Of a stretch of DNA of 64,000 bases, positions 23,604-47,336 are shown piece after piece. Where the stretch lies: the NCBI GenBank assembly GCA_041658955.1, contig JBAZZE010000003.1, positions 3,842-67,841 of the forward strand, in the 5' to 3' direction. A model generated the notes under the pieces. The model was not told the DNA's origin, searched no databases, and saw only the letters and a list, made by a program, of their open reading frames with translations. The stretch comes from Candidatus Shapirobacteria bacterium. Its GTDB lineage: Bacteria; Patescibacteriota; Microgenomatia; UBA12405. Made by a program: the position numbers and the translations under genes. The stretch's first letter is position 1. Each line of letters starts with the position of its first letter.

Positions 23604-23786
23604 CAAACTCAAACACATTTCCTCCGTGGACCGATAATCGGGCTAGCAAGGTTAACTGAAACCACCACATCATTTTTAAGTCGAACCGATAGTCTGCCGA
23701 CTTGAATGATCCCATGCGCACGTCCGGCAGCTATCTGCATTCTCGTCGGCTACCAACCGAAAACAAGCCGACTGCGAAAACTTCTT
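23604..23786 (+). ncRNA. Conserved structured intergenic element B, copy 1 (candidate ncRNA or cis-regulatory RNA)
   Basis: Shares two blocks with 47205..47336: AAACTCAAA(C/G)ACATTTCCTCCGTGGACCGATAATCGG, and CATCTGCATTCTC-[hairpin]-TGCGAAAAC(T/C)TC. The hairpin is GTCGGCT...AGCCGAC here and GAAGACC...GGTCTTC in copy 2, which are compensatory substitutions. Confidence 0.45.
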
Positions 23787-23820
23787 TTAAAAACGATATG
23801 GTGTTTTCAAATAAATACAA

Positions 23821-24606
23821 ATGAAATATAAGTGGTGGCTGATAACTAGCTTAGTAGTTTTATTGTTAATGGTGTGGCAATTCAACCGTGATACTGGGGT
23901 GAAGGTGGTGTTTTGTGATGTAGGACAAGGCGATGGGGCGTTGATAATAAGCGGTAGTTTTCAGATGTTGATTGATGTTGGTGGTGGTAATCAGAAAATG
24001 CTCCAGTGTTTATCGAGGCACTTGCCGTTTTGGGATAAAACTATAGAAACAGTGGTAATTAGCCACTGGGATGCGGATCATAGTGGCGGACTACCAGGTA
24101 TTTATCGTTATTATAAGATTGAAAAACTATATAGTAATCAACTGTCGTCGGGGGACGGTGAACAAAAATTTTACCCAACTAAAGTATCAGAAAATGATGT
24201 CATTAGATTTGATGGGATAGATTTTGAAATACTTAATAAAGTAGTTGAAGGTGGCGACCCAAATGAAAATTCACTAATCGGAGTACTTAGTTATAAGGAT
24301 AAAAAAATATTAATGATGGGAGACGCTACTAGCGAAGCTGAACAAAGATTGGTGTGGCAAGGAATCCTTCGACAAGCTCAGGATGGAAAAGGAATAGATA
24401 TTTTAAAAATAAGTCATCACGGATCGGATAGGGCGACTTCGCCAGAATTACTTGATGAGGTCAACCCAGAAATGGCGATAATTTCAGTGGGTAAAGATAA
24501 TAAATTTGGTCACCCAGCAAAAACGGTAATAAAAAGACTGGAAGAGAGGGGTATAAAAATCAATAGAACCGATAATATGGGAGATGTAACGGTTACATAT
24601 GAATGA
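23821..24606 (+). CDS. ComEC C-terminal metallo-beta-lactamase-fold domain encoded as separate ORF
   Basis: N-terminal TM. Motifs VVFCDVGQGDGALII, ISHWDADHSGG (HxHxDH-type), LMMGDATSEAEQ, ISHHGSDRATS and NKFGHPAKTVIKRL, typical of the ComEC Lactamase_B domain. Confidence 0.65.
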   Translation: MKYKWWLITSLVVLLLMVWQFNRDTGVKVVFCDVGQGDGALIISGSFQMLIDVGGGNQKMLQCLSRHLPFWDKTIETVVISHWDADHSGGLPGIYRYYKIEKLYSNQLSSGDGEQKFYPTKVSENDVIRFDGIDFEILNKVVEGGDPNENSLIGVLSYKDKKILMMGDATSEAEQRLVWQGILRQAQDGKGIDILKISHHGSDRATSPELLDEVNPEMAIISVGKDNKFGHPAKTVIKRLEERGIKINRTDNMGDVTVTYE

Positions 24607-24674
24607 AATTGGTTGTATATATAGAGAAAAAAGTGTAAATTTAATATAGAAAAGTTGTAATTAATAAATCAAAA

Positions 24675-27600
24675 GTGCTGCTTCTTAAAAGACCAGTTTT
24701 AATGGGGGTTGTATTAGGGGTCTTTTTAGGGAGCCTTGTAGGTTGGGGGTGGTGGAGAGTATCGACTAAGGTTGAAGCAACAGATCGGACAATCACCAGT
24801 CGAGCTGATTTTGATCAAGGTTTGTTTGATAATACTGAAAGTAAAAGTAAGGAAGGAGAACTGAGACTAAAAGCCGGTGGTACTTGGGGAGCAAGGGTAT
24901 GGCAGATGCCAAAGGTAGGGATGACCAACCAAACAGGAATTGTCTCCGATGGAACCCACTTGTATATGTTGGCTGGTCAGGATAGGTATTTTGCTAAATA
25001 CATTCCAAATGAAGATCGATGGCAACAATTGGCCAATGCGCCACATGCTGCCTCGGTGGGGACTGATTTGGTGGTTGAGGGTGATTATATTTATGCAATT
25101 TTTGGGTCTTACACTAAGAACTTCAGTCGATACACGATCTCGACTGATACTTGGGTGAATATGGATGATGCCCCAGATTTGCTATACGATGGAGCTAGTT
25201 TGGGAACGGATGGAACCTATATTTATCTACTACGAGGGTCGTATACATCAGATTATTGGCGGTATAATCCATCAAATAATACATGGCTTAGTCTAGCGGC
25301 TCCACCAGCGACGATTGGAAGGGGGGCTAGCCTTTCATATAAGAATGGTTATTTTTATACGCCTAGAGGTGATTCAAACTTATTTTACAAATATGAAGTT
25401 GCCACAAATTTGTGGACTACTTTGCCAAATATACCGGCACCAAGTATCTCATATGCAGCTCACAACTCGGATATATTTGGAAATGCTTTGTATTACAACT
25501 TGGACTATGGGACGACAGCTTTTTACAAATTTGATTTGGGAACTACGTCTTGGTCAACACTACCGGGCTTGCCATGGCCATCTTATTACGTGGGTTTGGT
25601 GGGGGTGGGTGACACGGCTACTGGTCATGTATATGTTTTTCGAGGAAATGGTTCAGTCGATTTTTGGAAATATAATCCACGGACAAATAGTTTTGAGGGT
25701 TCGGTGGACACACCGAATGCTCCTAGTACAGGAGCAGACTTGCTTTATGATGGAAATTATCTGTATTTAAACCGAGGGGCAAATTCGACGAATATGTATC
25801 GGTACCAAATTGGAGGAACCTGGAAAACAATGGCAGATGCGCCGGCTGCTATGGGTGATGACACTAAAGGAATACAGGCTGGAGGATCGTTTTATTATAT
25901 TCGAGGGTCGGGGACGACTGCATTTTTTAAATTTGATCCGGCGATTGGGGCTAACGGGACTTGGACATCGATGTTGGGTACACCGGCCACAGCCAACTAC
26001 GGGGCGTCAGTAGTTTATCCAGGTAGTGGTAATTATATGTACGCAACCAGAGGTGCTTTGACACGAACTTTTTGGAGATACACAATTGGGGCAGGGGAAA
26101 CGTGGAGTGACGCGGCGGCGGCTGACTTACCAGATAATGCTGAAGCTGGGTATGGAGCTAGACTGGCGAGTGATGGAACAGATATCTATTACATGCCAGG
26201 AAGTGGAATGAGCAAACTTTATAAATACACTATCGGAACAACAACTTGGTCAGAAATTTCTGACATTCCCTTTTCGCCTTACTATGGGTCAGATATAAGC
26301 TACTATAACGGCAAATTGTACTTTTTGGCGGGTTACTATAAACCAGACTTTTGGGAATATACCATCGCCACCTCATCATGGAGAAGATTGGCGCCAACTC
26401 AAGATTATGGAGCCACAGAGATTGGTCCTTGGGCTGGTGCATCAATTGAATCATTGGGTAATGGTACTTTTTATGTAATTTTAGGAAATGGGGTGACAAG
26501 ACTTTTGACCTATACCGTAGATGCAAACAATTACCCAGTAAGTGGTGGGTGGACTAGTAAAGCCTTAGATTTATCATATGTAGCTTCGTGGAGTGGTCTG
26601 TCAATACAATCTTCACTGCCAGGAGACTCGTCAATTAGCTGGACAAGTCGAAGTAGTAGCGATCAAATAACTTGGAGTGACTGGATTGCTGGAGTGGGGA
26701 GTAGCATTGGGAGTCCGGTGGGAAGGTATCTTCAAGTTGGAGTAACCTTGGTATCGACGAGTGATCGGACAAATACGCCAAAGTTACTAGATATTCAAGT
26801 AAGTTATATTGGTGATACTGGAGTACCGACTAATCCATCAACGGTGGTGGGGGTGTCACAACAAGTATCGGGAGTGGGTCTGACATCGGCAGAAAGTTAT
26901 GGTTACCAAGCACCATATTTTAGTTGGAGCGGTGCGACTGACACTCAGACTTCAATTGCCGGATACTATGTTTATTTTGGAACTGGATCAAGTGCTTCAC
27001 CGGTGACCGAGGGAAATTATCAAACTGCGAGCAACTATCTAGTGACTACACCAATGGATCAGACGACTTACTATTTGAGATTGGTGACAGTTGATTCTGC
27101 TGGTAATAATTCAGCGGCAACTACAGCTTTTGTTTACACCTACAATGGAATTGCACCACCGATTACGATAACAAAGACAACTACAGCAGACTTTGGAGTG
27201 GGAACTACCAGCGCCGTGGATGTAAGTGGTGACAAGATAAAACTACAAGGTAAAGCAGGTTTTTGGGAGCAAGAGAGAATAAGCAGCCTGCCTGCAGGGA
27301 TATATTTAGGTGGTGACATGGCTTACAAAAGTAGCACTAATAAAATCTATTTATTTAGAGGCTACAATTCGAATACTTTTTATATTTATGACTTGACTAC
27401 CAATACAGTATCGGTGGGTCCGACAGCGCCAGGGGCAGTGTATTATGGTGGAGGTATGGTGGAAGGACCGGGTAATTACTTATATGCTATGAAAGGCTTA
27501 GTAACCAATTCTTTCTGGAGATTTGATGTGGGGACAACTACCTGGTCAGATGTAGCAGCGGCTGATTTACCACAGACTATATCGTATGGAGGATCGCTGG

Positions 27601-30600
27601 AATATGATGGCAGCCGATTTATTTATGCCACGCGAGGGTCGGGTGATGATGCCTTAATGAGATATGACACAATTGGTGACATCTGGGAAATGATGGCCAA
27701 TGCTGATTTTAATGCTCCAATAAATCAACCCAATAACACCATAAACGATGGTTCAGATATGGCTTATGATGGAAACGATACGTTGTATGTAATGCAGGGT
27801 GGTGGAAGAGATGGTTTTGCTGGATATAGTATTTCCACCAATACCTGGTTAACTCTTACTGATTTACCGATGTTTTCCGGGGCAGGTTCACAAATTGAAT
27901 ATGATAGTACTACCAATGCTATTTATTATGTTGCTGGTAGTGGTCGAAATTTTGTCTACAAATACGACATTGCGTCTCAATTGTGGAGTGATCTAGCAGA
28001 GACTCCAATGGCTGTAGGTGGAGGAGCTTCACTTAAAAAAATTGGAGGAAACTTATATTTGACAGTAGGTAACGGTTCGTTAGCGGTTTATAAGTACAAC
28101 ATCAATAAAAATATGTGGCTAATTCCGACCGTTGGTTTATTCGGTGGCTGGTTTAGAGGTAGTGATAGTCGCACTTTTGGATATGGGGCGGACATTGTAA
28201 AAGGGGATGGAAATAATATGTATTTAGTTAGAGGAAACTTTGACAATCTATTTGTCCGTTACAATTCAGTGACAGGAGTAGCGACTAGAATGGCCGATGT
28301 TCCTGCAGGCATGACTTCAGGTACGAAATTGGTTTATGATAGTGTTCATAACCGGATTTATGCAACCGTGGGGTCATATTATCGAAAGTTTTTTGTCTAT
28401 GATGTGGCCAGTGATACTTGGTCGGAAGAAGTAAATGATCCGCCGCCACTTGATAGTGCTGAGGGAAGTTCGATGGTGTTCAATGCTACAGATAGATATA
28501 TTTATTGGCTTCGAGGTGCTGGAACCCAGAGTTTCTATCGGTTCAACACTGAAGGCGTGGGGACTAGTAAATGGAGCATTTTGCCAAATACGGGATTGTC
28601 GATGAGCTATGGAGCTGATATGGTTTTGAAAAATGATTATATTTATACATTACGCGGTTCAAACACCACTGGATTTTTGAGATACGGTCCGTTGTCGGTA
28701 GGGGCGACTTGGTCAAATACGGCAGTGGCTGATTTACCAACCGGAGCCAATATATATAATGATGGATTCTTAGTTGATCTGGGTGGCGACTACTTAATGG
28801 CTTGTCGAGGTGGTAATCAAAACACCTGTTACCGTTACTCAATTACTGGAGATAGCTGGTCAGTAGTGACTAGCGCCACATCGCCATATATTTACACTGG
28901 AGGAGCAGGGGCAGTTAACTCGAGTGGCGAAAAAATGTTGGTGATAGCTGGAAATGGACAATTAAATACTATGTCTAATGGGTTGTATAGCTATGTAATT
29001 GAAAGTGAAAATTCGTCTTATGAAGAAAGTGGTGAATATATATCACCAGTCCATGACTTAACAGCAGTTTACAAATTTGCAAACTTAAGCATAGATGTTA
29101 CTTTGCCTGATAATACAGGACTTTCTGTATATACAAAATCATCGGCAGATAACTCGACTTGGGGAGACTGGACGGTAGCTTCTGAACAAAAAATTGTGGG
29201 TACCAATAGGAGTTTTAAGATAAACTCAACAACAGCGAGGTATTTACAGATTAAGTTGGCAATGACTTCGAGTGATGGAGTTAGGTCGGGAACAATAAAT
29301 AGCTACACAGTAAATTATTATCAAGATACAACAGAGCCAACAAACCCGACACTATTATCTGGGTATACCAATAGTGGGATGGGGACAACTTTAGTAAGTG
29401 GTGTCTGGAATAATTCGACTGCGCCATATTTCGGATGGAGTGGGGCGAGCGATGGAGCAAATGGTTCGGGGGTAGAGGGATATTATGTTTATTTTGGAAC
29501 CGGAGAAACGGCAAACCCGGTAACTTTAGGGACTTACACCACAGGAACATCTTTTATAGGAACAACCATGGTTTCAGGAGAAACTTATTATTTCAGACTT
29601 AAAACAAAAGATAGTGCTGATAATGTCAGCACGGATGTAGGAACAACTTTGGTTTATAAACTTGATAACACCGCCCCAGAAAACCCGACGGCTGTTTTGG
29701 CTAATCCACCAGGGTATACGACAATCGATAACTTTACTTTCACATGGGGAGCGGGCACAGATAGCTCTTCAGGGATTGCGGCATATTGTTATAAAACCGG
29801 TGCTAGTAGTGGTCCTCTAGCGACAGAACAATGCATTACTGATGTAGGAGTAACTGGGATAACTGGGATCACCAAATATCAAACTGATGAAAATATTTTT
29901 TACTTAAGAGTTAAAGATACGGCTGGCAACTTCGCCAGTAGTTCATTGACAGCAATTTATAAGTTTTCAGGAACTGCTCCAAGCCGACCAATGAACTTAA
30001 GAATGACTTACCCGGATGTGGGGACTAGCAACACGGTTAATGATTTTGCTTTTGCTTGGGATCAACCAGAAAGTTTCTTGGGAGCGGCTGCCAACCTAGT
30101 TTATAAATACTCAATAAACGAAGAACCAACGCCAAGTAATGTGAGTACAGTGGGGACGAATGTCCGATACTTAAGTCGAAGCCAATATGCCTCGCGTAGC
30201 GGAGTAAATACTATTTATGTGGTGGTATCAGACGAAGCTGGAAATATGGCAGTCACCGATGGAAAGTACACCAACTATGCCAGTTTGGATTTTGAAGCAT
30301 CAACTTCAGCTCCAGGAATTGGTAGAAACTTAGATATCTCTGATGTGTCAATTAAAGAAACTAGTAGTTGGAGATTAGCATTGACTTGGGATGCGCCTGA
30401 GGCATCTGGATCAGGTATCGCTAATTACCGGGTATACAGAAGCACTACTGCTGGAGCCTCTTGTACTTCAAGTATGGACAATTTTGGTGGAACAAACGGC
30501 TTTATATCGACAACGACTACCACATCGTATATTGACACAGAACTATTGCAGTCAAAATATTATTATTGTGTCAAAGCTTGTAATTCAACAGACCAGTGTG

Positions 30601-31880
30601 GGGCGCCAAGCTCAACTGTAGCCTTGCTACCAGATGGTAAGTGGCGAGTACCACCAACATTAACTGCAGAACCGGCGGCAAGTGTAAAAACAAAGACGGC
30701 GACAATTACCTGGTCGACAAATCGTAAGGGTAATTCATTTGTAAAGTATGGTAAAAGTGCTGGAGATTATGGTGAAGAAGTTGGATCATCAGATCTTTTG
30801 AGTGCCCATGAAATTGCTCTTACTGGCTTGGACCCGGGAACTACTTATTATTACAAAGCGACATGGACAGATGAGGATGGAAATACTGGCGAATCAACGG
30901 AGTATAGTTTTAAAACTAACCCGGCACCAATTGTGTCAACCGTTAAGATTGTTGACGTTGGATTGTATTCTGTTTATGTAAAATTTGGATTGAACCATGC
31001 ATCAAAAGCAACTATTCAATACGGTAAAACTACAGCGTATGGTTCGGTGGCTGAGTTAACCACATCAACTGCAGAATCGACTTATTCTGAAAAACTAGAT
31101 AGTTTGGAAGAGGGTACAAAATATCACTTAAAAATCGTGGCAGAGGATGAAGAGGGTAACAAATTTACATCGGATGATTATGAATTTGCGACTCTGCCAA
31201 TGCCTAAGATTGAGGGAGTAAAAATCCAGCAAGTAAAAGGAATGGCGAGTGCCACGATTATGGCGTCCTGGAAAACAAATACTGGAGTATCGTCGATTGT
31301 GAGTTATTACCCAGAGGGGAGACCAGAAATGACCAGAGATCAGGTTACTTTGACGCTAGGGTTGAATCACCAGATGCTAATTAAGGACCTGTTGGATGCG
31401 ACTGATTATGTAATATTGGTACGAGGTAAAGATCAAGTTGGAAATGAAGCTAAAATGAGTACCAACAAATTTAAAACTTCAACTGATCTTCGACCACCCT
31501 TAATTACTGATATGCGGGTAGAAGGGGCAGTGAGTGGAGTTGGTGAAGCGACCAAAGCCCAGATAATTGTTTATTGGAATACTGATGAGCCATCGACTGG
31601 CCAAGTTGAGTTTGGTGAAGGAACTGGTTCTGATTATCCCAATAGAACTCAAGAAGATGGAAACTTCACCCTGAATCACGTAGTAACTATTACTGACTTG
31701 AAACCTTCTCAGGTATATCATTTAAGAATAGTATCTAAAGACAGAATTGGTAACCAAGTGGAGTCATTTGATAATGTGACGGTAACACCAAAGGCAACCA
31801 AATCAGCACTCGACCTGGTGGTTAACAGTTTGTCTAAGAGTTTCGGATTCTTTGGAAGTTTAGGAAAAATAGCCCAATGA
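24675..31880 (+). CDS. Giant (2401 aa) membrane-anchored surface protein: about 40 Kelch-like beta-propeller repeats followed by FN3-like domains
   Basis: N-terminal TM. Long array of ~48-aa repeats of the form Y.Y...G.....F..Y.......W..L...P (e.g. IYLLRGSYTSDYWRYNPSNNTWLSLAAPPA). At least four C-terminal FN3/PAP-N-like units (ATITWSTNRKGNSFVKYGKSAGDYGEE...TGLDPGTTYYYKA). The stop overlaps the ABC ATPase start (ATGA). Confidence 0.7.
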   Translation: MLLLKRPVLMGVVLGVFLGSLVGWGWWRVSTKVEATDRTITSRADFDQGLFDNTESKSKEGELRLKAGGTWGARVWQMPKVGMTNQTGIVSDGTHLYMLAGQDRYFAKYIPNEDRWQQLANAPHAASVGTDLVVEGDYIYAIFGSYTKNFSRYTISTDTWVNMDDAPDLLYDGASLGTDGTYIYLLRGSYTSDYWRYNPSNNTWLSLAAPPATIGRGASLSYKNGYFYTPRGDSNLFYKYEVATNLWTTLPNIPAPSISYAAHNSDIFGNALYYNLDYGTTAFYKFDLGTTSWSTLPGLPWPSYYVGLVGVGDTATGHVYVFRGNGSVDFWKYNPRTNSFEGSVDTPNAPSTGADLLYDGNYLYLNRGANSTNMYRYQIGGTWKTMADAPAAMGDDTKGIQAGGSFYYIRGSGTTAFFKFDPAIGANGTWTSMLGTPATANYGASVVYPGSGNYMYATRGALTRTFWRYTIGAGETWSDAAAADLPDNAEAGYGARLASDGTDIYYMPGSGMSKLYKYTIGTTTWSEISDIPFSPYYGSDISYYNGKLYFLAGYYKPDFWEYTIATSSWRRLAPTQDYGATEIGPWAGASIESLGNGTFYVILGNGVTRLLTYTVDANNYPVSGGWTSKALDLSYVASWSGLSIQSSLPGDSSISWTSRSSSDQITWSDWIAGVGSSIGSPVGRYLQVGVTLVSTSDRTNTPKLLDIQVSYIGDTGVPTNPSTVVGVSQQVSGVGLTSAESYGYQAPYFSWSGATDTQTSIAGYYVYFGTGSSASPVTEGNYQTASNYLVTTPMDQTTYYLRLVTVDSAGNNSAATTAFVYTYNGIAPPITITKTTTADFGVGTTSAVDVSGDKIKLQGKAGFWEQERISSLPAGIYLGGDMAYKSSTNKIYLFRGYNSNTFYIYDLTTNTVSVGPTAPGAVYYGGGMVEGPGNYLYAMKGLVTNSFWRFDVGTTTWSDVAAADLPQTISYGGSLEYDGSRFIYATRGSGDDALMRYDTIGDIWEMMANADFNAPINQPNNTINDGSDMAYDGNDTLYVMQGGGRDGFAGYSISTNTWLTLTDLPMFSGAGSQIEYDSTTNAIYYVAGSGRNFVYKYDIASQLWSDLAETPMAVGGGASLKKIGGNLYLTVGNGSLAVYKYNINKNMWLIPTVGLFGGWFRGSDSRTFGYGADIVKGDGNNMYLVRGNFDNLFVRYNSVTGVATRMADVPAGMTSGTKLVYDSVHNRIYATVGSYYRKFFVYDVASDTWSEEVNDPPPLDSAEGSSMVFNATDRYIYWLRGAGTQSFYRFNTEGVGTSKWSILPNTGLSMSYGADMVLKNDYIYTLRGSNTTGFLRYGPLSVGATWSNTAVADLPTGANIYNDGFLVDLGGDYLMACRGGNQNTCYRYSITGDSWSVVTSATSPYIYTGGAGAVNSSGEKMLVIAGNGQLNTMSNGLYSYVIESENSSYEESGEYISPVHDLTAVYKFANLSIDVTLPDNTGLSVYTKSSADNSTWGDWTVASEQKIVGTNRSFKINSTTARYLQIKLAMTSSDGVRSGTINSYTVNYYQDTTEPTNPTLLSGYTNSGMGTTLVSGVWNNSTAPYFGWSGASDGANGSGVEGYYVYFGTGETANPVTLGTYTTGTSFIGTTMVSGETYYFRLKTKDSADNVSTDVGTTLVYKLDNTAPENPTAVLANPPGYTTIDNFTFTWGAGTDSSSGIAAYCYKTGASSGPLATEQCITDVGVTGITGITKYQTDENIFYLRVKDTAGNFASSSLTAIYKFSGTAPSRPMNLRMTYPDVGTSNTVNDFAFAWDQPESFLGAAANLVYKYSINEEPTPSNVSTVGTNVRYLSRSQYASRSGVNTIYVVVSDEAGNMAVTDGKYTNYASLDFEASTSAPGIGRNLDISDVSIKETSSWRLALTWDAPEASGSGIANYRVYRSTTAGASCTSSMDNFGGTNGFISTTTTTSYIDTELLQSKYYYCVKACNSTDQCGAPSSTVALLPDGKWRVPPTLTAEPAASVKTKTATITWSTNRKGNSFVKYGKSAGDYGEEVGSSDLLSAHEIALTGLDPGTTYYYKATWTDEDGNTGESTEYSFKTNPAPIVSTVKIVDVGLYSVYVKFGLNHASKATIQYGKTTAYGSVAELTTSTAESTYSEKLDSLEEGTKYHLKIVAEDEEGNKFTSDDYEFATLPMPKIEGVKIQQVKGMASATIMASWKTNTGVSSIVSYYPEGRPEMTRDQVTLTLGLNHQMLIKDLLDATDYVILVRGKDQVGNEAKMSTNKFKTSTDLRPPLITDMRVEGAVSGVGEATKAQIIVYWNTDEPSTGQVEFGEGTGSDYPNRTQEDGNFTLNHVVTITDLKPSQVYHLRIVSKDRIGNQVESFDNVTVTPKATKSALDLVVNSLSKSFGFFGSLGKIAQ

Positions 31881-34796: not shown

Positions 34797-34809
34797 GTTA
34801 TAATATGGT

Positions 34810-35040: not shown

Positions 35041-35042
35041 GA

Positions 35043-38822: not shown

Positions 38823-39584
38823 ATCACTAGGCATAGTCTGTCATAACTTAGAAGCTGTCATAACGTGAATTTAGCAATCTACGCTTTTTTCTGCTACGAC
38901 TTTAAAAGTAGCAAATAAATGGAAACTTCCAAGTATCAATTGATGTAAGACAAAAGCGTTGTAAAGTATTTTAGGGTGAATGGCTTACAAGCTAAACAAT
39001 GAGTAAGAGATGATGATGGTTTAGCTTCAGATGGTAAATGGAATATTTAGATATAGTCGATATGGAGAGGTGGCTGCGGACAAAAAACTCAAGCAAAAAT
39101 GGTTAGCGTGTAAACAGTTTTACCAAAAAACTACTTACTTGAGGAGAATAATGTACCTAAATTCGGAGATTGTGATGGAGATAAGATTTATTAGATATAT
39201 TTAAGCAAGTTTAATATTTTGACTAAATGCGGTGATAATATGAAAGGAAATTTTGATAATAATCAAAAAAATATCTGCGGTTATATTCGGAGAAGTAGCG
39301 GAGAAAGAAGTTGTGTAAAGCTAAAAAGTGCGGAATATGAGAGTGAAAAATTTAAAAAACTATTATTTTTATTTAAAATCGACTAATGATCGTTGTTTCA
39401 TGAAATGAAGGAATATATTTCAAAAATTTAGATCCTAAAGTTTTTTTGTTAAAAAGTTTTTTATAAAAATGAAAATTCTGATGTTAAACTTTTTTTGGGG
39501 GATGATGATATTCCGATTGATAAAATCATCACGTTGCGAAGCTCTAGTGCGATTAGTGCGAAAATAACGTTTTATTTTATACTT

Positions 39585-39656
39585 GTATCCCCAGGCAGAA
39601 TCGAACTGCCATTTAAGGTTTAGGAAACCTCCGTTCTATCCATTGAACTATAGGGA
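39585..39656 (-). tRNA. tRNA-Arg (anticodon CCT)
   Basis: The reverse complement folds as a cloverleaf. Acceptor GTCCCTA/TGGGGAT. D-arm GTTC-AATGGATA-GAAC. Anticodon stem GAGGT/ACCTT with loop TTCCTAA (anticodon CCT). T-arm GGCAG-TTCGATT-CTGCC. Discriminator A. No encoded CCA. Confidence 0.8.
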
Positions 39657-39694
39657 CAGGCAAACTCAACCATATGAAAATATGGTGGAATTTG

Positions 39695-39768
39695 TCGGGG
39701 ATACTGGATTCGAACCAGCAACCTCACGATCCCGAACCGTGCGCGCTAGCCAATTGCGCCAATCCCCG
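39695..39768 (-). tRNA. tRNA-Pro (anticodon CGG)
   Basis: Reverse complement. Acceptor CGGGGAT/ATCCCCG. D-arm GCGC-AATTGGCTA-GCGC. Anticodon stem CACGG/TCGTG with loop TTCGGGA (anticodon CGG, G37). T-arm GCTGG-TTCGAAT-CCAGT. Discriminator A. Confidence 0.8.
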
Positions 39769-40188
39769 TTTTTTGACAAGCTCAAGTTTTGGGCCTATCT
39801 ATTAGAGAATAAGGTAGTCCATATTCTCTTGTTTCATATTATACCGTGGTGGGAGTTTTTTAGGTCCGTTTATTGTTACAGGATAGAATGATAATGTTCT
39901 ATTTATATATATAAAGTTTATATTTGATGGTTATGTATATACAAACATAAGAATTGTGTGTTGGTTATTTAGCAAAAAACTATACTGAGTGCTAAGTCTT
40001 TTTTTGTTAATAATACTTGGTGAGATGAGCAAATATGTGTATATATATAAACTATAGTATTGAAGACCATTGAACCTTTGAGTTTGCTAGGCACGAAATG
40101 GTTTTTCTATATTAGGGGACTAAGTTTGTTCTTTTGCCGTACAATTGCTGTACTTGACTAAATAAAAAAAAGTATCTAGACTGATGTT

Positions 40189-40605
40189 ATGAATGACACA
40201 GCAAGAAATACCCGTACTCTGATCGTCAGTTTTGTTTTTGCAATTATGGCTTTGATTCCTCTTCGTTTTGTAGAAGTTGGACAAATGATTCAAGACCAAC
40301 CCATGGTTTTAGGAGAGCAAGTCCAAAATTCTCCTGAAGTTGTTTTACCAGAAAGTGGTGTTAGCGAAGAAGCGGTTTTAGAGGCTCCTTATAATGAAAT
40401 AGAATATGGTCAACAAAGTCAGCCGGCTGAGGAAGTTCTAGGAGAAGAGACCCAAGTAAGCGAAAGTGAATGCATTCCTGCAGACGAAGCTAGATCGGTT
40501 TTAGCTGAATATGAGACAAAGTTAAGTGAAGGTGGCTCGAATGGTGAAGAAACTGATCAAATGGTCAGTGAGATGATCAGCATCGAATCGATGATGTGTA
40601 AATAA
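40189..40605 (+). CDS. Small membrane-anchored acidic hypothetical protein
   Basis: 138 aa. N-terminal TM (LIVSFVFAIMALIPL). Glu/Gln-rich tail. Confidence 0.35.
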   Translation: MNDTARNTRTLIVSFVFAIMALIPLRFVEVGQMIQDQPMVLGEQVQNSPEVVLPESGVSEEAVLEAPYNEIEYGQQSQPAEEVLGEETQVSESECIPADEARSVLAEYETKLSEGGSNGEETDQMVSEMISIESMMCK

Positions 40606-40935
40606 CTATTTTATCCTTTCAATTAGCATGACAGCATCTGTTTTGGCCCTTCTTTTGTCTTCGAACAGGATTCTTCCGATATCGACACGATACACAAGGC
40701 AGGTAACTTGATGCTTTCTTTCCATATACCGGACTAGTCCGGTGGCTTCACCTCTGCTTTTGACAACACCGATACCACCCCAGCCACTCCACGGGCCTTT
40801 GCCTTCGACTATTTGTTCAGGTGGTAAACGAACCCAAGTGTTCTCTTCGTATTCAAGAATGTTTGGATTCTGGCGCAGTCCCAGGGATTTTAAATCTGAA
40901 GTGACTACTTTGAAGAATTCCTTTTGGGCCATCAA
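40606..40935 (-). CDS. Hypothetical protein
   Basis: 109-aa ORF with a 4-nt overlap with the upstream PEGA gene. No recognisable motif. Confidence 0.3.
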   Translation of the reverse strand: MMAQKEFFKVVTSDLKSLGLRQNPNILEYEENTWVRLPPEQIVEGKGPWSGWGGIGVVKSRGEATGLVRYMERKHQVTCLVYRVDIGRILFEDKRRAKTDAVMLIERIK

Positions 40936-42155
40936 CGAATTGTGACGGCGTAAAGATTTTCAGTTGATCCAGTGAATGGGGCGGTCAGAGTGATAATCTT
41001 GTTGCCATCAAACCAAGGTAGGGTTACTTCAGGTCGGAAGTTGCCAGCGTAGATGGTTACTTGGTTGGTAGCGTCATAATCAGCTGCCTTAAGCTCTTGA
41101 TTAGTTAGATAAACAACATTACTAGAAGAAGGCAGCCAATAGGGATTCTGAACCTCAGTAGGCGAACCTAGACGGTAATTTGTGTCTTCTTTTAGGTCAT
41201 AAATATAATAATCACCGATGGCTAGACTGCGAGTTTGAGTTTGAGTACTTTGAGCTGGAGGAGCGGTGGCTAGTATTTGAGGTATGGTGGCAGACTGGGT
41301 GGCTTGATAGAGGACCTTGTCTTCAAGAGTAGTAAAAGCAATCTTTTGTCCGGAGACCGTGGAGATAAAAGGCTTAAGTTCTTCAGGTAGACGATCAAGT
41401 TTACTGAGAATTATTTCTTTATCCTGGGTGGCCCATGTTTGGCGGATAAGTGGTAAACGAGGGGTGACATCAACTAAAGTTTTGGAATCAATAGTAGTGG
41501 CTAAGTTAAGTAAATATTTGACACCACTTTTAAAAGTAGCAATAACTTCCATAGAATTGGGAGAAAACTCATATGAAGCTTTGGACCAATCAACAGAAAG
41601 TGTGTTGGTGGCGATTTGGCGGGGGGTGTTCTTGGTTAGATAAAGTGGATTGGCACTTAACTCAATTAGATATAGTCCATTGTTGGCGGTAGCTGAGGAA
41701 GAAGCAACAGCATAAATGACCCGACTTTTATCAGGACTAACTTCAGGGTTGATGACTCCAGTGTGAGTAATTGGTTTGAGGTCAGGAGTTGAGCGGAAAA
41801 GTTGGGAATCGGTTTGATAGACAATTTCTGCCTTAATCTTGATGGTTTTTTGCCAATTAAAGTAACCATCTTTAATGATTTTTACGACATAATCACCAGG
41901 AGTTAGGTTTATAGTATCGTCAGTAGCTGTAATTAGAGAATTGTTGATATAGACGCTAGCACCTTTGGGACGGGAGGTGGCGGAGAGTAATCCGGTGGGG
42001 TTGAGGGTTAAACCACCAGGTTGAAGTGAAGGTCGGTAGCCACGGGCGAGGAGAGTCACTCCCCAGGTACTTAATACCACAAAGAAGAATACAGATAAGA
42101 CGATACTTAGGCTTTTCTTCTCGCTTTGGGACAGCATGATAGTATTATAAACCAA
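40932..42155 (-). CDS. PEGA-domain membrane-anchored protein with beta-propeller-like C-terminal region
   Basis: N-terminal TM. PEGA-like GASVYINNSLITATDDTINLTPGDYVVKIIKDGYFNWQKTIKIKAEIV. Divergent from mreB. Confidence 0.5.
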   Translation of the reverse strand: MVYNTIMLSQSEKKSLSIVLSVFFFVVLSTWGVTLLARGYRPSLQPGGLTLNPTGLLSATSRPKGASVYINNSLITATDDTINLTPGDYVVKIIKDGYFNWQKTIKIKAEIVYQTDSQLFRSTPDLKPITHTGVINPEVSPDKSRVIYAVASSSATANNGLYLIELSANPLYLTKNTPRQIATNTLSVDWSKASYEFSPNSMEVIATFKSGVKYLLNLATTIDSKTLVDVTPRLPLIRQTWATQDKEIILSKLDRLPEELKPFISTVSGQKIAFTTLEDKVLYQATQSATIPQILATAPPAQSTQTQTRSLAIGDYYIYDLKEDTNYRLGSPTEVQNPYWLPSSSNVVYLTNQELKAADYDATNQVTIYAGNFRPEVTLPWFDGNKIITLTAPFTGSTENLYAVTIR

Positions 42156-42230
42156 GAATAGGGATTATAGAGGAGGTGGGTAGGGTTTTGGCTGTACGAG
42201 TCTGTTAACAAATATTGGTAGAATGTAGTA

Positions 42231-43232
42231 ATGAAACTGTTTAAGAAATTAGGAATTGATTTGGGCACGGCTAATTCGGTGGTCTGGGAAGAAGGGGTGG
42301 GAGTGGTTTTGAATGAACCAACCGTGGTGGCAGTAGGAGTTGATGATCGAAAAATTCTGGCGGTTGGAGCTGAAGCTAAGAAAATGTTGGGGAAAACACC
42401 GGAATATATTGAAGTTATCCGACCAATGGAAGATGGAGTAATTGCTGACTATGAAGTAACTGAAGCAATGATGAGGTATTTTTTGAAGCAAGTAATGGGT
42501 CGGGGATGGATCATGGGTCCAGAGGTAATGGTTTGTGTCCCGGCAGGAGTAACTCAAGTCGAACAAAGAGCAGTCATGGACGCAACTATTTCAGCTGGAG
42601 CAAGAAAAGCCTATCTTATCGATGAACCATTGGCTGCGGCGATTGGGGCCAAGATTCCGGTATCGGAACCTTATGGCAATATGATTGTGGATATTGGTGG
42701 TGGTGCGGCGGAAGCGGCTGTAATTGCCTTGGGTGGAGTGGTAACTCACAAGACAGTTCGGGTAGGTGGAGCAAAAATTGATGGAGTTATCGCCGAATTT
42801 TTGAGAAGAAAGCATAATTTGATAGTTGGAGAGCAAACATCAGAGACTATAAAGATAAAAATCGGAAGTGCGATTAAGTTAAAGCGGCCTGAGACGATGG
42901 AGGTCAGTGGCCGGGATTCGGTGTCGGGACTACCACGGATGGTAGTTATTGACTCCGATCAAATTCATGAGGCGATATCGCCAATGCTTAGTAGCATCAT
43001 CATGGTGATCCGAGACACTTTGGAAATTACGCCACCAGAGTTGGTGGCCGATATCGCTGACCGGGGGATAGTGCTTTCCGGAGGTACATCACTTCTACGA
43101 AACTTTAATGTCTTAGTGACTCGAGAAATTGGGGTGTCAGCACACGTCGCTCCGGAACCGCAATTTTGTGTAATTAAAGGAACTGGGATTGCCCTGGAAA
43201 ATCTAGACGTTTACTGGCGGGCGATACGTTGA
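42231..43232 (+). CDS. mreB: Rod shape-determining protein MreB (actin-like ATPase)
   Basis: N-terminus LGIDLGTANSVVW. Phosphate-2 region VMVCVPAGVTQVEQRAVMDA. Adenosine region DIGGGAAEAAV. C-terminal VLSGGTSLLRNF. Confidence 0.9.
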   Translation: MKLFKKLGIDLGTANSVVWEEGVGVVLNEPTVVAVGVDDRKILAVGAEAKKMLGKTPEYIEVIRPMEDGVIADYEVTEAMMRYFLKQVMGRGWIMGPEVMVCVPAGVTQVEQRAVMDATISAGARKAYLIDEPLAAAIGAKIPVSEPYGNMIVDIGGGAAEAAVIALGGVVTHKTVRVGGAKIDGVIAEFLRRKHNLIVGEQTSETIKIKIGSAIKLKRPETMEVSGRDSVSGLPRMVVIDSDQIHEAISPMLSSIIMVIRDTLEITPPELVADIADRGIVLSGGTSLLRNFNVLVTREIGVSAHVAPEPQFCVIKGTGIALENLDVYWRAIR

Positions 43233-43626
43233 TCTAGTAGGATAATAAGTCTTGTAATAGTTTTTATTTCAAATAATTTAGTTATCAGTTTTTTAGCTTT
43301 TATATCATTATAACTGCAGTTTTGTTTTTTGATTAATAAATCGACTAACTCTTAATCTTTACCCTAGATTATGGATTATTTTGTGAGTAAATGTTTTATT
43401 CATAATGACTATATTTAGCCTAAGGTTAATAACAGAATTATTGGCTTATAGAAAATTGGGTAAACTGAGGTGATATAGTTAACAAGCTATGCTTGTAGTA
43501 TATTGATTATATAGGGTAAGGTGATAGCAAGTGATATAGTTTTTTGACAAGAAAAGTCGAGAAAAAAAAGAAGAGGAGTGTTAAAATGAAATTAGATAAT
43601 GTTTGATATAGTTCATAAACAAAAAA

Positions 43627-44475
43627 ATGGCGATGAAGCGTAAAAAAATGGATAGATCTACATACAAAAGTGGCCTATCTAATTGGGATATCTTTGGTAC
43701 TCCGATGTTTGGCAGAGATAGGTTTGCTCTGCTAAAACTAGTGGGTAGTCTACCGGAGAATGCTCAGGCATGGATTGCGACGGTAAATCCAGAATTTGTG
43801 ATGAAAGCCCAAGAGGATATGGATTTTATGAGAATACTCCAAAATAGGACGACTTACAATGTGGCTGATGGGGTGGGATTGTTGTGGGCAAAAGAGGTTT
43901 TGAAGGTAAAAAGTAGTCAAGTTTTAACCAGAATTGGGAAGAGATTAGTTAAGGGTTTTCTGGTTGGAATGGAAGTGATTGGGGGGAGAAAAATGGATGG
44001 ACTTATCTCGGGTGCTGACCTAATTGATAGTCTATGTAAGGAAGCGGCAGAGAATAATAAGTCAGTATTTTTCTTAGGTGGTTGGGGGGACCGGGGAGCT
44101 AGAAGTGCAGCATTGTTTAAAAAGAAATATCCCACGCTAAAAGTGTCTGGTAGTTATGCTGGTAATCGAGTGGGTGAGGATGAAAAGACCTTGAAGGTGC
44201 TATCTGAATACAAAATTGACTATTTATTCGTGGCTTATGCCATGAAGACACAAGAAGAATGGATTAATCGCAACTTGGACAAGCTTAAAATAAGATTGGT
44301 AATGGGGGTGGGGCGAAGTTTTGACTATTATTCAGGAGATTTGCGCCGAGCACCCACATGGGTACGTAAAATGGGTTTTGAATGGCTATATTCTCTTATT
44401 ATGGAACCTAAAAGGTGGAAGCGACAATTGGCTTTGCCGAGGTTTATTGGTAAGGTTTTGGTGTCTGATAGGTAG
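43627..44475 (+). CDS. WecB/TagA/CpsF-family glycosyltransferase (N-acetylmannosaminyltransferase-like)
   Basis: Motifs ATVNPEFVMKA, DGVGLLWA, FFLGG, and GVGRSFDYYSGDLRRAPTWVRKMGFEWLYSLIMEPKRW, which is the characteristic C-terminal signature of the family. Confidence 0.75.
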   Translation: MAMKRKKMDRSTYKSGLSNWDIFGTPMFGRDRFALLKLVGSLPENAQAWIATVNPEFVMKAQEDMDFMRILQNRTTYNVADGVGLLWAKEVLKVKSSQVLTRIGKRLVKGFLVGMEVIGGRKMDGLISGADLIDSLCKEAAENNKSVFFLGGWGDRGARSAALFKKKYPTLKVSGSYAGNRVGEDEKTLKVLSEYKIDYLFVAYAMKTQEEWINRNLDKLKIRLVMGVGRSFDYYSGDLRRAPTWVRKMGFEWLYSLIMEPKRWKRQLALPRFIGKVLVSDR

Positions 44476-44493
44476 GGGTGGTAATATGAGTGT

Positions 44494-45003
44494 ATGAGTC
44501 AAGATGTAAAAGATCCTATTCAATATGTTGAGTCAGGTTCTCTGACTCCGGATAAATATTTGACACCAAGGGCGACTGAGGTAATGGTAAGACTGCCAGG
44601 TGAAAAAATAACATCTGAACTATTTCCCCAATTATTGGCAGAACTTGATGGATTTAAGGATGATCAAGAAATGATTAGGAATGCGTGTGGGCATGCTGAA
44701 CACTTTTTTGCACCAGACGTTGACTTTGGTAACACCACTTGTGAGTCGGTGAGCTATGATCCAGGAGGTTTAATTGGATTAAAATTTGACAATCCTCGAT
44801 TGCAGGCAATAGTGATCCAACCGGATGATGATGGAGATGGAAAGTGCCGTCTTCAAGTTGTAGCCGATGGTATGAGGCATGAATATAAGATGCAAGGTGG
44901 GACCTTGGTGAGTGGGTTTAATGAGAAAATTGCCGAAGAATCCAGAACTTATCAAATGTTGGCGCACTTAGGTGTCGATGTGGCCAAGATGAATGATAAA
45001 TAA
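44494..45003 (+). CDS. Hypothetical protein
   Basis: 169-aa ORF in an operon-like position between the glycosyltransferase and the J-domain gene. No motif recognised. Confidence 0.35.
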
Positions 45004-45005
45004 CA

Positions 45006-46097
45006 ATGACGTACAAGGACTATTATGAGATTTTAGGTGTTGGTAGAAAAGCATCGGATGATGATATTAAGGCTGCATATAGAAAATTAGTCAAAATAAC
45101 ACATACTGATATTTACCCTGAAAAAGAAGAGGAATTTAAAGAACTCAATGAAGCATATGGGGTATTGAGTGATGTTGATAAACGAGCAAGATACGATCGA
45201 TTTGGAAAAGAAGGCTTGAAGCAGGGTTTTGTACCTCCGGCTGATGGTTTTGGTGATTTTTGGAGTGAGTTTGGGGTTGGTGGTGGTATGTTTGGCGATA
45301 TTTTGCGGAGTATGTTTAGCGGTGATAAGGCTGAGCAAGCAAGAGCTAGACAGAGGGCAGAAGAAATGTTGAAGGATTTACAGGCTCAACAGGAGCGGAC
45401 AAGAACCGAGGGTGCGACTCGAACTACGGTAAATCGTCCATCAAATGACCATCCAAAATCAACAAGGTCAGCTCAACCAAATATAAAATTTGGGTTAGGA
45501 GACATTAAAATTCCTGAAGAAGAGTTTAGTCTTATGGCTGGACTAACTAAGATCGAAGGTATGAGAGGGCCGGTAACCTTAGAACATGATGAATATCGAA
45601 TTTTGAAGGACAAGATGGGCAATACTCGGGTTGAGGTAAAGATGTCTCGGTTTATAAAAGATGGTAGAACTGAAGTTCGGGTGGGTAAACCAGGTACCTT
45701 TGAGACTTTTAATAAAACACGGAAAGATTGGGTTGATGCTAGTTGGATAGATCAGGGAAATGTGATGGGAGCCGATATGCCCAAAAATTATCGAAGTTTA
45801 ATTGGATTAGTTAATCAAGTGGCTTTAACAATTTCCCATCAGGATGAACTGACCGATGTAACGATAACTAGCTTAAACATTGCTGCCCGGGTGAGTTTCC
45901 CGGATGATCGGAAGAGAGAGGTGGAGGGTGATCGTCTTCGCCAGGAATTGGTGATTGAATCGGGAAAATGGTTGTTTACTGGGGTTGATGATGAAGTTAA
46001 GCCGAAAAATATGCCAGTAGAGGGTGGTATGGCTTCCAAGCCTAAGTCGGCACCAATAAATCTAAATGAAGGTTTGAAGATGCGTAGGAAAACTTAG
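45006..46097 (+). CDS. J-domain protein with degenerate HPD motif (HTD), non-DnaJ C-terminal region
   Basis: N-terminal [63 protein letters not shown] is a J-domain with HPD replaced by HTD. There is no CxxCxGxG zinc finger. Confidence 0.6.
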
Positions 46098-47155
46098 TTG
46101 AACTTACCAAGAAATTTTATTTCTGGGATGAGTTCAAAGCCAAACTTTTCACGGACCATATCTTGAACATATTTGACTAAATTGTAGAAATCAGCCGCTG
46201 TGGCAGTACCGGTGTTGATAAAAAAGTTGCTATGTTCGTTAGAAATCTTGGCACCGCCGATACTAAAACCTTTTAAAGACAGTTCATGGTCGATAATCCA
46301 ACCGGTGGATTTTTGTTCACCCCAGATTTTTTGACAAATTTCCAGGGAAGGATTGGCAAAAGCACTACCGGGGGAAGCCATAGATTGAACTTTGGATTTT
46401 TGAGCGATCCAGGCCTTATAGACTTCCATGGCTTTATTGGTGTCGCCTCGGAAGAGCTTAAGGGTGACGGAAAGAACGATAAGATGGGGATTTTTTTGGA
46501 ACATACTGGTTTCGTATTTCCAGTTGAGCTTATCTTTTTTTAATAGTTCGGTTTTTCCGGTTTTAAGGTTAAATACCTTGATAGTGTCGGTGTAATCGGA
46601 AAAATGGTAGCTACCACCATGAATATTTTGATAGACAGCACCACCCACTGTACCGGGAATATAACCAAACCATTGAAGTCCGGTAAGACCGGCAGAAATG
46701 AGTTGGGTAATGGCAAATGGCAGGGGGGTGCCGGCTTGAATAGTAACTTCTTGGTAGGGTAGGTGAGACTCATCATAATCAAGACGGGTAAAGTCCAAAT
46801 ATTTTTGAGGTTCGTTTTCATTTCTTTGGGCATAAGTGACCTTGAAGTTTGAATCTGGTTCGTGAATCCGAGGGTGAATGTCGATTTTATTGGCTTTGTT
46901 GACAATGGTTAATCCGGGAAGGCCGGCGTCAGAGATGACGACATTGGAACCAGAACCCAGGATGGTGAAGGGTAATTCGGGGTGATTATGGAGAAATTTG
47001 AGAAGATCGAAGAGTTCACTTTGTTTGGTGGCGATGGCGAAAAGTTCAGCATTACCACCGAGATGAAGGGTGTTGTAGTTAGACAAAGAATGATTTTCAG
47101 CGACGAACATGCCAGTGTGGACTTGTTGGAGTTCTTCAAATAGGGGGTGAGACAT
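46094..47155 (-). CDS. murB: UDP-N-acetylenolpyruvoylglucosamine reductase
   Basis: FAD-binding N-terminus [11 protein letters not shown]...[21 protein letters not shown]-terminal [19 protein letters not shown]...GSAFANP, typical of MurB. Confidence 0.85.
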
Positions 47156-47204
47156 AGCTTTATTATACTAAATTAAATCTAGACGATTCTTATTTTTGTG
47201 TTGC

Positions 47205-47336
47205 TTCAAACTCAAAGACATTTCCTCCGTGGACCGATAATCGGCTATCCTCCTTAATCCCAAGCGCGTGTACCGCCGTCATCTGCATTCTCGAAGACCT
47301 CCATACAAAAGAAACAGGTCTTCTGCGAAACCTCCA
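47205..47336 (+). ncRNA. Conserved structured intergenic element B, copy 2
   Basis: See copy 1. This copy lacks the ~80-nt insert present in copy 1. It contains the palindrome CCGATAATCGG. Confidence 0.45.

Follow-up and report, generated by a model that had tools for sequence, protein, structure and literature searches.

A probable new family of small structured RNAs in Shapirobacteria and other Microgenomates-type CPR bacteria

Results

Two copies of a structured RNA unit

We found that two intergenic loci in a 64,000-nucleotide stretch of DNA from Candidatus Shapirobacteria (the whole stretch is referred to here as the window) probably carry genes for small structured RNAs of about 150-190 nt, which belong to a family that had not been catalogued before. 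An earlier note had described the two loci as copies of a candidate structured RNA that share two sequence blocks and a hairpin kept through compensatory change, and this core idea was strongly supported. Pairwise alignment of both copies showed both blocks. The first contains the 26-mer CATTTCCTCCGTGGACCGATAATCGG, found exactly twice (23616-23641 and 47219-47244; none expected by chance), and the second contains ATCTGCATTCTCG, exact at 23733 and 47281. The hairpins were as described, GTCGGCT/AGCCGAC in copy 1 (23746-23772) and GAAGACC/GGTCTTC in copy 2 (47294-47323), and a REP-like repeat, element A, lies near both copies (23499-23581 and 47766-47838).

The unit was found to be larger than this hairpin. 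A terminal helix (P1) pairs the 5' and 3' ends of the RNA and closes a tight three-way junction, which bears the P2 arm (the hairpin just mentioned) and the P3 arm. The features in the window are as follows.

23658-23808, minus strand: copy 1 (comEC-MBL locus), type 1 paralogue, complete unit that includes a P1 of its own (23787-23808 with 23658-23679)
23745-23772, minus strand: copy 1 P2 hairpin, GUCGGCU/AGCCGAC
23688-23735, minus strand: copy 1 P3 arm, GAUAGCUGCCG...CGGCAGACUAUC
23602-23647, minus strand: 3' fragment of a second, type-2 element (P3 3' strand and P1 3' strand)
47208-47358, minus strand: copy 2 (murB locus), type 2 paralogue, whole RNA unit of ~151 nt, 5' to 3' from 47358 to 47208
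47341-47358, minus strand: copy 2 P1 5' strand, AAACUCAAAGACGUUUCC, pairing with 47208-47225 over 18 bp
47323-47332, minus strand: copy 2 conserved 5' junction strand, GGUUUCGCAG (alignment A8)
47293-47323, minus strand: copy 2 P2 hairpin, stem 47316-47323 with 47293-47300, the compensatory hairpin of the earlier note
47281-47293, minus strand: copy 2 invariant block, CGAGAAUGCAGAU, exact in both window copies and (nearly) invariant in the columns of A8
47236-47283, minus strand: copy 2 P3 arm, whose base, GAUGA/UUAUC, has one bulged A and continues into an extension and loop that vary
47208-47225, minus strand: copy 2 P1 3' strand, GGAAAUGUCUUUGAGUUU, part of the first shared block

The core of copy 2 (47227-47338) matched the covariance model R1 with 108.8 bits, and that of copy 1 (23679-23787) gave a covariance-model hit of 102.9 bits. 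P1 of copy 2 has one G-U among its 18 bp, and this G-U is a pair on the minus strand only. Within the block CGAGAAUGCAGAU lie the internal loop and the junction, together with the 3' strand of helix P2a and the first part of P3. The strand GGUUUCGCAG includes the GCA loop, the 5' strand of P2a (UUC) and pair 7-65.

An insertion of ~80 nt had been proposed for copy 1, but this was an artefact of alignment. Copy 1 has its own closing helix (23787-23803 with 23663-23679) and its own homologue of the first block, ACTATCGGTTCGAC, with a 44-nt spacing after GCAG that equals the spacing in copy 2. The sequence that had been assigned to copy 1 as its first block (23602-23641) belongs to the separate type-2 fragment, which is 97.5% identical to 47205-47244. 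The fragment is what is left of a [type 1][type 2] pair in tandem. The same tandem was found in L017, and the comEC-MBL spacer of L062 contains an intact type-2 member.

Members of the family and searches against known RNAs

We derived a gapped pattern from three copies and scanned JGI metagenomes and GTDB genomes. The true homologues recovered in this way were L010/L017, L012/L014/L015/L021/L028 (Candidatus Amesbacteria), L018 and L026. Of the 22 loci that these pattern scans returned, 14 were chance matches in coding DNA of Flavobacteriales, Dehalococcoidia and GC-rich contigs, and were discarded. The covariance model added L059 (103 bits) and L062 (99.9 bits), both beyond the reach of the gapped pattern. 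L002 carries an orthologue of copy 2 upstream of murB, and the orthologue of copy 1 is L059:1249-1361. In total, 10 distinct members were identified, the two in the window and eight from relatives (other Shapirobacteria, one Amesbacteria MAG and two unclassified contigs), so that the range of the family so far consists of Microgenomates-type CPR bacteria only. Since there are only 10 distinct sequences and 7 of them come from related Shapirobacteria, the number of independent substitution events is modest.

Exact 22-mer and 21-mer queries from the first block had no match in GTDB genomes and viral contigs, because such patterns are too strict; the L002 copy differs inside this block. A two-block pattern gave 27 loci in viral contigs, all of them weak or coding false positives by the covariance model, and a degenerate three-block scan of viral contigs gave none. 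Phage and plasmid collections searched with blastn contained no match to the element.

The earlier note had recognised no motif of RNase P, SRP or 6S, and none of the 4227 models of Rfam 15 overlapped the element at E<=10 in positions 47100-47950 of the window, L017, L018 or L015. This comparison takes in RNase P, SRP, 6S, tmRNA, known ribozymes, riboswitches, YrlA and phi29 pRNA. In the window, the only matches above the Rfam gathering threshold were two tRNAs. Literature searches by keyword and by the literal core sequence returned nothing relevant, and no description of a lineage-specific structured RNA from CPR, Patescibacteria or Microgenomates. The element resembles the orphan structured RNA motifs of Rfam ('Gene; sRNA') in its compact multi-stem fold backed by covariation, its invariant junction nucleotides and its narrow phylogenetic range, but it matches none of the Rfam 15 models and comes from CPR/Microgenomates. 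With Y RNA/YrlA and 6S RNA it shares 5' and 3' ends held in a long helix that closes a structured module, as well as paralogous copies; it differs from them in having no Rfam match to YrlA, Y RNA or 6S, in lacking a central bubble and a tRNA-like module, and in the absence of an rsr-type neighbour among the genes checked.

Two further candidates were tried and rejected. E. coli 4.5S RNA contains GCAGAUGACG, which is also present in copy 2; an SRP-like RNA was ruled out by the absence of this motif in other members and of any Rfam SRP match. In the type 2 arms, GGAGGAAAUG precedes M(C/S)LSL, which raised the possibility of a small ORF or a type I toxin, but members other than type 2 do not conserve this arrangement and the frames are not the same.

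A shared fold maintained by compensatory changes

P1 is 17-25 bp long and near-perfect, and it always pairs although its sequence is completely different between lineages. On one arm of the junction, pair 7-65 is followed by the 3-bp helix P2a (UUC/GAA), an invariant GCA/GA internal loop and the variable P2 hairpin. The other arm, P3, consists of GAUAR...YUAUC and a variable extension. About 24 columns are invariant from Shapirobacteria to Amesbacteria, nearly all of them at the junction and in the one internal loop. A K-turn at the GCA/GA loop was ruled out by a register conflict with the covarying P2 pairs.

In the 10-member alignment, which was fitted to the covariance model and is thus biased toward the structure of that model, pairing holds in 98.7% of cells and both sides change in 17 of the 23 pairs. 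Slid controls of this alignment gave 26-47% pairing, and none of 500 shuffles reached the observed value. An alignment made with MAFFT only gave 95.6% pairing cells and changes on both sides in 12 of the 23 pairs. By helix, changes on both sides were found in seven of eight P2 pairs and six of nine P3 pairs among the 10 members. P2a and pair 7-65 also covary, with P2a changing from UUC/GAA to AAC/GUU in L059 and pair 7-65 from G-C to A-U in L062. The hairpin could in principle have proved simply hypervariable, with frequent non-pairing variants, as the earlier note had considered; it was paired in all eight further homologues, with six stem sequences and no broken inner pairs.

RNAalifold, run on a MAFFT alignment containing the flanks, missed P1 because the P1 arms do not align, and this helix was instead assessed per sequence. 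P1 duplex energies were -20.6 to -35.5 kcal/mol compared with shuffled means of -5.7 to -17.3 (-28.6 compared with -8.7 in copy 1). The outer positions of P1 covary among orthologues (CACCA/UGGUG, UUCA/UGAA, CUCA/UGAG). Unconstrained folding of single sequences gave the same architecture in all 10 members.

The RNA reads on the minus strand

Both copies share one orientation, as had been noted, but G-U wobbles and predicted folding energies place the RNA on the minus strand of the window rather than on the plus strand. The core helices contain four G-U cells and no A-C cell when read on the minus strand, and each G-U becomes an A-C mismatch on the plus strand. The unconstrained minimum free energy was -58.3 kcal/mol on the minus strand and -46.9 on the other strand for copy 2, and -59.2 and -48.1 for copy 1. 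Across the family, the whole-unit energy was lower in the window-minus orientation in 8 out of 10 members, with a mean difference of 9.6 kcal/mol.

Transcription signals were also compared. Promoter-like -10 boxes upstream of P1 were no better than those on the opposite strand, and this two-strand comparison did not discriminate between the strands. A terminator scan detected no terminator-like site at either window copy, where a G+C-rich hairpin with a direct U-tract was absent, and no consistent terminator across members; U-rich 3' flanks occur in only 2-3 of the 10. At three loci, the genes on both sides lie antisense to the RNA. The RNA of copy 1 begins only ~13 nt from the ATG of the MBL gene, so that its own promoter would have little space.

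Turnover of the element and comparison with intergenic repeats

Presence of the element varies between close relatives. At the murB locus, the window and L002 have it, L004 has a version with an internal deletion and L005-L007 have none. At the comEC-MBL locus, it occurs in the window and in L059 and L062, and is missing from L057, L058, L060 and L061. L017 contains a degenerate third copy. We did not find a clean empty site, and the state in L004 is an internal deletion rather than an excision.

Such a pattern could come from a non-autonomous selfish repeat similar to MITEs, REPINs, ERIC or Correia elements. An enzyme encoded at another place in the genome would then recognise its inverted-repeat ends and its internal fold, in the form of single-stranded DNA or of RNA, and the structure would be conserved for propagation rather than for a role in the cell. 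We consider this unlikely. Like ERIC, Correia/CREE, REPIN and BOX, the element is an intergenic unit of ~150 nt with inverted-repeat ends and presence/absence polymorphism. It also shares with them nested or tandem copies, decayed copies (here truncated or internally deleted) and co-location with another repeat family, as its spacer is a hot spot that is also occupied by element A. Its orientation is independent of neighbouring genes, and the type-2 arms AAASTCAAASAYGTTTCY are common to three loci (murB, L017 and the comEC-MBL fragment).

The ends and the interior of the element, however, are conserved in a manner that is the reverse of what is seen for ends recognised by a transposase. The arms are completely different among type 1, type 2, L012, L018 and L026 and are shared only within each subtype, in contrast to the sequence-conserved terminal inverted repeats of a MITE, whereas the internal junction is invariant across orders. 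The covariation of outer P1 positions among orthologues also argues against a selfish repeat, and the strand asymmetry of G-U pairing points to selection on one RNA strand. Copy number is low, with two copies in 64 kb and none detected by the covariance model on 8 of the 12 contigs obtained through MurB or MBL homologues (about 110 kb in all). No target-site duplication was evident at the ends of nine members, where AT-rich flanks could hide short ones; no transposase, reverse transcriptase or integrase was found among the neighbours checked, and the phage, plasmid and viral collections contained no relatives.

Possible catalytic or ligand-binding function

The concentration of about 24 invariant nucleotides at a multi-stem junction, with stems that all vary with compensation, is reminiscent of small ribozymes. 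The junction and the GCA/GA loop might be the active site of a new class of natural ribozyme, or a new trans-acting aptamer that binds a ligand, specific to ultra-small CPR bacteria and with P1 as a processing and stabilising stalk; we regard this proposal as doubtful. A stricter version, in which the RNA would belong to a novel class of small RNAs that cleave themselves or are catalytic in another way, with the invariant junction and loop forming the active site and the variable stems acting only as scaffolds, seems to us quite improbable and is purely an analogy. Known small ribozymes (hammerhead, twister, hatchet and pistol) have a patchy, multi-copy distribution without gene association, and the element is distributed likewise, in mixed orientation and without a fixed gene partner. 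It also resembles them in its three stems, its conserved junction nucleotides and its freely covarying stems. However, its core sequence is different and matched no Rfam ribozyme model even at E<=10. The hammerhead core CUGANGA...GAAA is absent, the junction strands being GCUUUCGCA, GAGAAUGCA and GG. P1, at 17-25 bp, is far longer than the usual closing stems of ribozymes, and no cleavage site could be identified in the sequence.

The element and its neighbouring genes

The neighbours of the element differ by locus (murB, MBL/ComEC, BrnT/holin and GT2/UDP-glucose dehydrogenase), and its orientation relative to them is mixed. Copy 2 adjoins the murB promoter on the other strand. The conserved sequence TAGTATAAT lies 5-6 nt before the murB ATG, which places the RNA upstream of the murB promoter, and the murB -10 box is downstream of the 3' end of the RNA. 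Because the neighbours are unrelated, the orientation is mixed and this -10 box follows the RNA, the element, judged from its genomic context, is not a riboswitch or other cis-regulatory 5' leader of the neighbouring genes.

Both copies had been placed just upstream of plus-strand genes, which holds for copy 1, ~13 nt before the MBL start codon, and not for copy 2, 543 nt from the ATG of the metallophosphoesterase gene. A plus-strand cis-regulator of these two genes (a leader, attenuator or terminator), or its variant, a cis-antisense regulator, is very improbable. In its favour, the L059 and L062 members occupy the same spacer as copy 1, and the element of L026 and L012 sits between two co-directional genes, directly ahead of the second, where a minus-strand RNA would be antisense to the 5' end of that gene. 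Against it, 8 of 10 members fold less stably on the plus strand, on which the wobbles turn into A-C mismatches. The genes that lie downstream also show no relationship between loci, the element is missing altogether from relatives whose MBL genes are 75-88% identical, and no consistent terminator-like U-tract follows the fold on either strand.

Two DnaA boxes and an AT-rich tract are present at 47.4 kb. A replication origin at this position was rejected, as the GC skew keeps its sign throughout the window.

Discussion

On the whole we think it probable, if far from certain, that the element represents an independent family of small RNA genes that turns over through duplication and decay, with the junction as its putative functional site. 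The RNA would be produced on its own rather than in the leader of an adjacent gene. P1, which is long and dsRNA-like, may define and protect the ends of the RNA, and it is a helix of the kind trimmed by RNase III. The invariant junction and loop could form the working surface, for binding of a protein or a small ligand, or for catalysis. The genes would multiply through local duplication and decay fast, leaving paralogues of two types, some of them in tandem, as well as copies that are truncated or have lost internal parts. Such local duplication and rapid decay would lead to patchy presence even among close relatives.

Given the tiny genomes of CPR bacteria, an RNA of ~150 nt whose junction is invariant between Shapirobacteria and Amesbacteria suggests strong functional constraint or horizontal spread. 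The seed alignment, structure and covariance model produced here can be used for RNA family databases and for the annotation of CPR genomes. With its two paralogue types, tandem pairs, decayed copies and hot-spot spacers, the family provides a worked example of an RNA gene family evolving by birth and death, and the 'intergenic repeats' of CPR genomes may hide RNA genes.

Two copies of the element and their surroundings

Pairwise alignment shows both blocks that the earlier note had described as shared by two stretches. The 26-mer of block 1, CATTTCCTCCGTGGACCGATAATCGG, has two exact occurrences in the window where chance predicts none, and ATCTGCATTCTCG matches exactly at both sites. The two halves of the second block flank the hairpins GTCGGCT/AGCCGAC and GAAGACC/GGTCTTC, and a separate REP-like repeat, element A, is found near both copies of element B, as proposed. 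Homologues of its MurB and MBL proteins place the source organism in Candidatus Shapirobacteria (Microgenomates, CPR). Copy 1 is located in a 311-bp spacer. Copy 2, which had been placed just upstream of the metallophosphoesterase gene, is 543 nt away from it.

Features of the window around element B (strand in parentheses).
22515-23510 (+), ComEC 'Competence' ORF, upstream border of the copy 1 spacer
23499-23581, element A
23658-23808 (-), element B copy 1, type 1
23821-24606 (+), MBL-fold ORF separate from ComEC, downstream border of the spacer
46094-47155 (-), murB, one neighbour of copy 2
47155-47170 (-), TAGTATAAT site of murB
47208-47358 (-), element B copy 2, type 2
47457-47465 and 47467-47475 (+), adjacent DnaA-box matches
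47766-47838, partial element A
47901-48743 (+), metallophosphoesterase gene, other neighbour of copy 2
49297-49405 and 51044-51131, element A

The 'Competence' and MBL-fold ORFs (22515-24606) are also separate in all six relatives fetched via MBL homologues (L057-L062), so the comEC split is ancestral and not the result of element insertion.

Relatives in metagenomes and genomes

A MurB locus 86% identical to that of the window (L002) carries an orthologous copy, in which the hairpin has undergone a compensatory change from GAAGACC/GGTCTTC to GAAGATC/GATCTTC. Another 86% relative (L004) retains the outer arms only, with the interior deleted. At L004 3329-3377 the 5' arm of the terminal helix, P1, through ...GUUUCGCA is joined directly to the final 14 nt of its 3' arm, which points to an internal deletion of ~110 nt rather than a clean excision. 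Element B was absent from the murB locus of more distant relatives (L005-L007).

We then searched JGI metagenomes and GTDB genomes, once each, with the pattern TTCGCAG N15-45 CGAGAATGCAG N38-50 ATCGGT (window minus-strand sense), derived from the three copies then available. Of the 22 loci returned, 8 held true homologues, and the remaining 14 were chance matches in coding DNA. The homologues are in L009 (the same sequence as copy 1), in L010 and L017 (the latter with two copies and a decayed third), in Candidatus Amesbacteria (L012, L014, L015, L021 and L028), and in L018 and L026. A covariance model, R1, built on eight sequences found two members beyond the reach of the pattern, L059 at 103 bits and L062 at 99.9 bits, each in the comEC-MBL spacer of a relative. 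R1 gave no hit in L003-L007, L057, L058, L060 or L061.

A common three-way-junction fold

The ten distinct members follow one plan. Their ends pair into the long P1 helix; its duplex energy ranges from -20.6 to -35.5 kcal/mol, compared with -5.7 to -17.3 for the means of shuffled sequences. The P1 sequence is unrelated from lineage to lineage, and even orthologues show covariation in the outer pairs. Three further P1 pairs beside the junction (P1b) occur as GGA/UCC, GAA/UUC, CUA/UAG and CAA/UUG. At the tight junction, the P2 arm begins with pair 7-65, which is G-C but A-U in L062, followed by the 3-bp helix P2a (UUC/GAA, AAC/GUU in L059), an invariant GCA/GA internal loop, and the P2 hairpin of 7-8 bp. 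This hairpin, the one described in the earlier note, is variable, with six different stem sequences and no broken inner pairs, which bears out the earlier proposal of compensatory change. Between the P2 arm and P3 there is a single A. P3 consists of GAUAR...YUAUC with a bulged A and a variable extension; GG leads back to P1. In all, 24 columns are invariant.

Pairing and covariation in the alignments.
A4, MAFFT, eight members: 95.6% of cells paired; 12 of 23 pairs changed on both sides
A8, ten members (fitted to the model; 7 of 10 sequences from related Shapirobacteria): 98.7% of cells paired; 17 of 23 pairs changed on both sides
A8 with pairs 7-65 and 8-64 (the latter tentative): 97.6% of cells paired; 18 of 25 pairs changed on both sides

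In the A8 controls, slid alignments were 26-47% paired and none of 500 shuffles attained the observed value.

In 8 of 10 members, unconstrained folding of the whole unit favoured the window-minus orientation (mean difference 9.6 kcal/mol); for the six members from the closest relatives of the window the difference was 6.6-23 kcal/mol. In this orientation all four wobble cells of the core helices are G-U and none is A-C, and P1 of copy 2, L002, L017b and L062 contains G-U pairs that the plus strand would render mismatches. Both copies had been placed on the plus strand; these energies and wobbles indicate that the RNA, if made, is a minus-strand product. The window has a strong, uniform positive GC skew (roughly +0.2 to +0.35 beyond 10 kb), so the plus strand is probably leading throughout; the RNA-sense strand of both copies is the minus strand.

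Paralogue types and turnover

Copy 1 has its own block 1 homologue, ACUAUCGGUUCGAC, 44 nt after GCAG, spaced as in copy 2. It is also closed by a helix of its own, in which 23787-23803 pairs with 23663-23679 and GAAA/UUUC lengthens the stem. The block 1 assigned to it earlier (23602-23641) is a true sequence match that does not belong to copy 1: it is all that remains, at the 3' side, of another element of the copy 2 type that has lost its 5' part. Type 2 comprises copy 2, L002, L017a, L062, the L004 remnant and this fragment, and type 1 comprises copy 1, L017b (identical to L010), L059 and the decayed L017c. A type 1-type 2 tandem is found in L017 and again at the window comEC-MBL locus. Of the comEC-MBL spacers in relatives, that of L062 holds type 2 only, that of L059 type 1 only, and those of L057, L058, L060 and L061 neither.

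L017 carries three copies in about 900 nt on the same strand. The degenerate one (1714-1796, minus), which has type 1 arms but has lost P2 and the J2/3 block, lies directly upstream of the intact type 2 copy. The comEC-MBL spacer, which element A occupies as well, is a hot spot with a birth-and-death pattern of element B copies. A selfish structured repeat is the strongest competing explanation, although we consider it improbable. A classical MITE was rejected, given subtype-specific arms versus an invariant interior and low copy number (two in the 64-kb window); no target duplications are visible either, though the AT-rich flanks could hide short ones.

Element A (~85 nt) consists of a T-run, an outer stem (TTATTGYC/GRCAATAA or TTCTTTGC/GCAAGAA), an inner hairpin and an A-run. 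Both the outer stem and the inner hairpin show compensatory changes, the latter being GTGCG-A-CGCAC in one copy and CTGG-TTGT-CCAG in another. Element A also occurs at L017 70-140, L057 ~3845-3925 and in the L060 comEC-MBL spacer; it can accompany element B or stand alone, and of the two it is the more consistently present in that spacer. Several direct-repeat families at window 1300-10000 (D1-D5, D11, D13; 27-300 nt, spaced 600-4500 nt) resemble domain repeats within large paralogous genes, not intergenic elements.

Genomic context and known families

TAGTATAAT is conserved 5-6 nt before the murB ATG in the window and three relatives (L002 655-673, L003 26-43, L004 3412-3427), which puts element B at this locus upstream of the murB promoter and outside a 5' UTR. 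No Shine-Dalgarno sequence was found at these four sites, and together with the closeness of TAGTATAAT to the ATG this implies a leaderless or nearly leaderless murB mRNA. The adjacent DnaA-box matches, TGTGGATAG and TGTGGATAA (= TTATCCACA on the minus strand), adjoin an AT-rich tract and are kept in L002 (~345-365) and L004 (~3222-3240) despite diverged flanks. The region may be a DnaA-regulated promoter region; a skew-defined origin was rejected, as GC skew is positive across the whole window.

Neighbours of element B are murB, MBL/ComEC, BrnT-BrnA with a holin-family gene (Amesbacteria) and GT2/UDP-glucose dehydrogenase (L026). At three loci the element runs antisense to the genes on either side; at others it is co-directional with the downstream gene. 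With neighbours unrelated and relative orientation mixed, a leader of the neighbouring gene was rejected, and the earlier suggestion of a cis-regulatory RNA for plus-strand genes is not supported; regulation of adjacent genes, in cis or by antisense, is very unlikely. Terminator scans found none at either copy.

The Rfam search called for earlier gave no family match to element B in Rfam 15 at gathering thresholds, and nothing overlapping it at E<=10 in four stretches with five distinct members. IMG/VR, INPHARED phages and PLSDB plasmids held no true match. Our literature search found nothing relevant on the core or family and no lineage-specific structured RNA for its CPR lineage.

Interpretation

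Covariation supports a three-way-junction fold of element B that is specific to the minus strand and has an invariant junction and loop; the family duplicates and decays. We are confident that element B is a real family of structured RNAs whose sense strand is the minus strand. With somewhat better than even confidence, we propose that it acts as an independent small RNA, in which the long P1 would set and protect the ends, probably by RNase III-type trimming as is typical of RNase III substrates, and the junction and GCA/GA loop would form a working surface for a protein, ligand or catalysis. A new self-cleaving ribozyme, which overlaps this small-RNA reading, is a long shot. Element B is new to Rfam 15, but its kind is familiar, that of an orphan structured bacterial RNA, and its junction is conserved strongly enough for a role in catalysis or ligand binding to merit testing.
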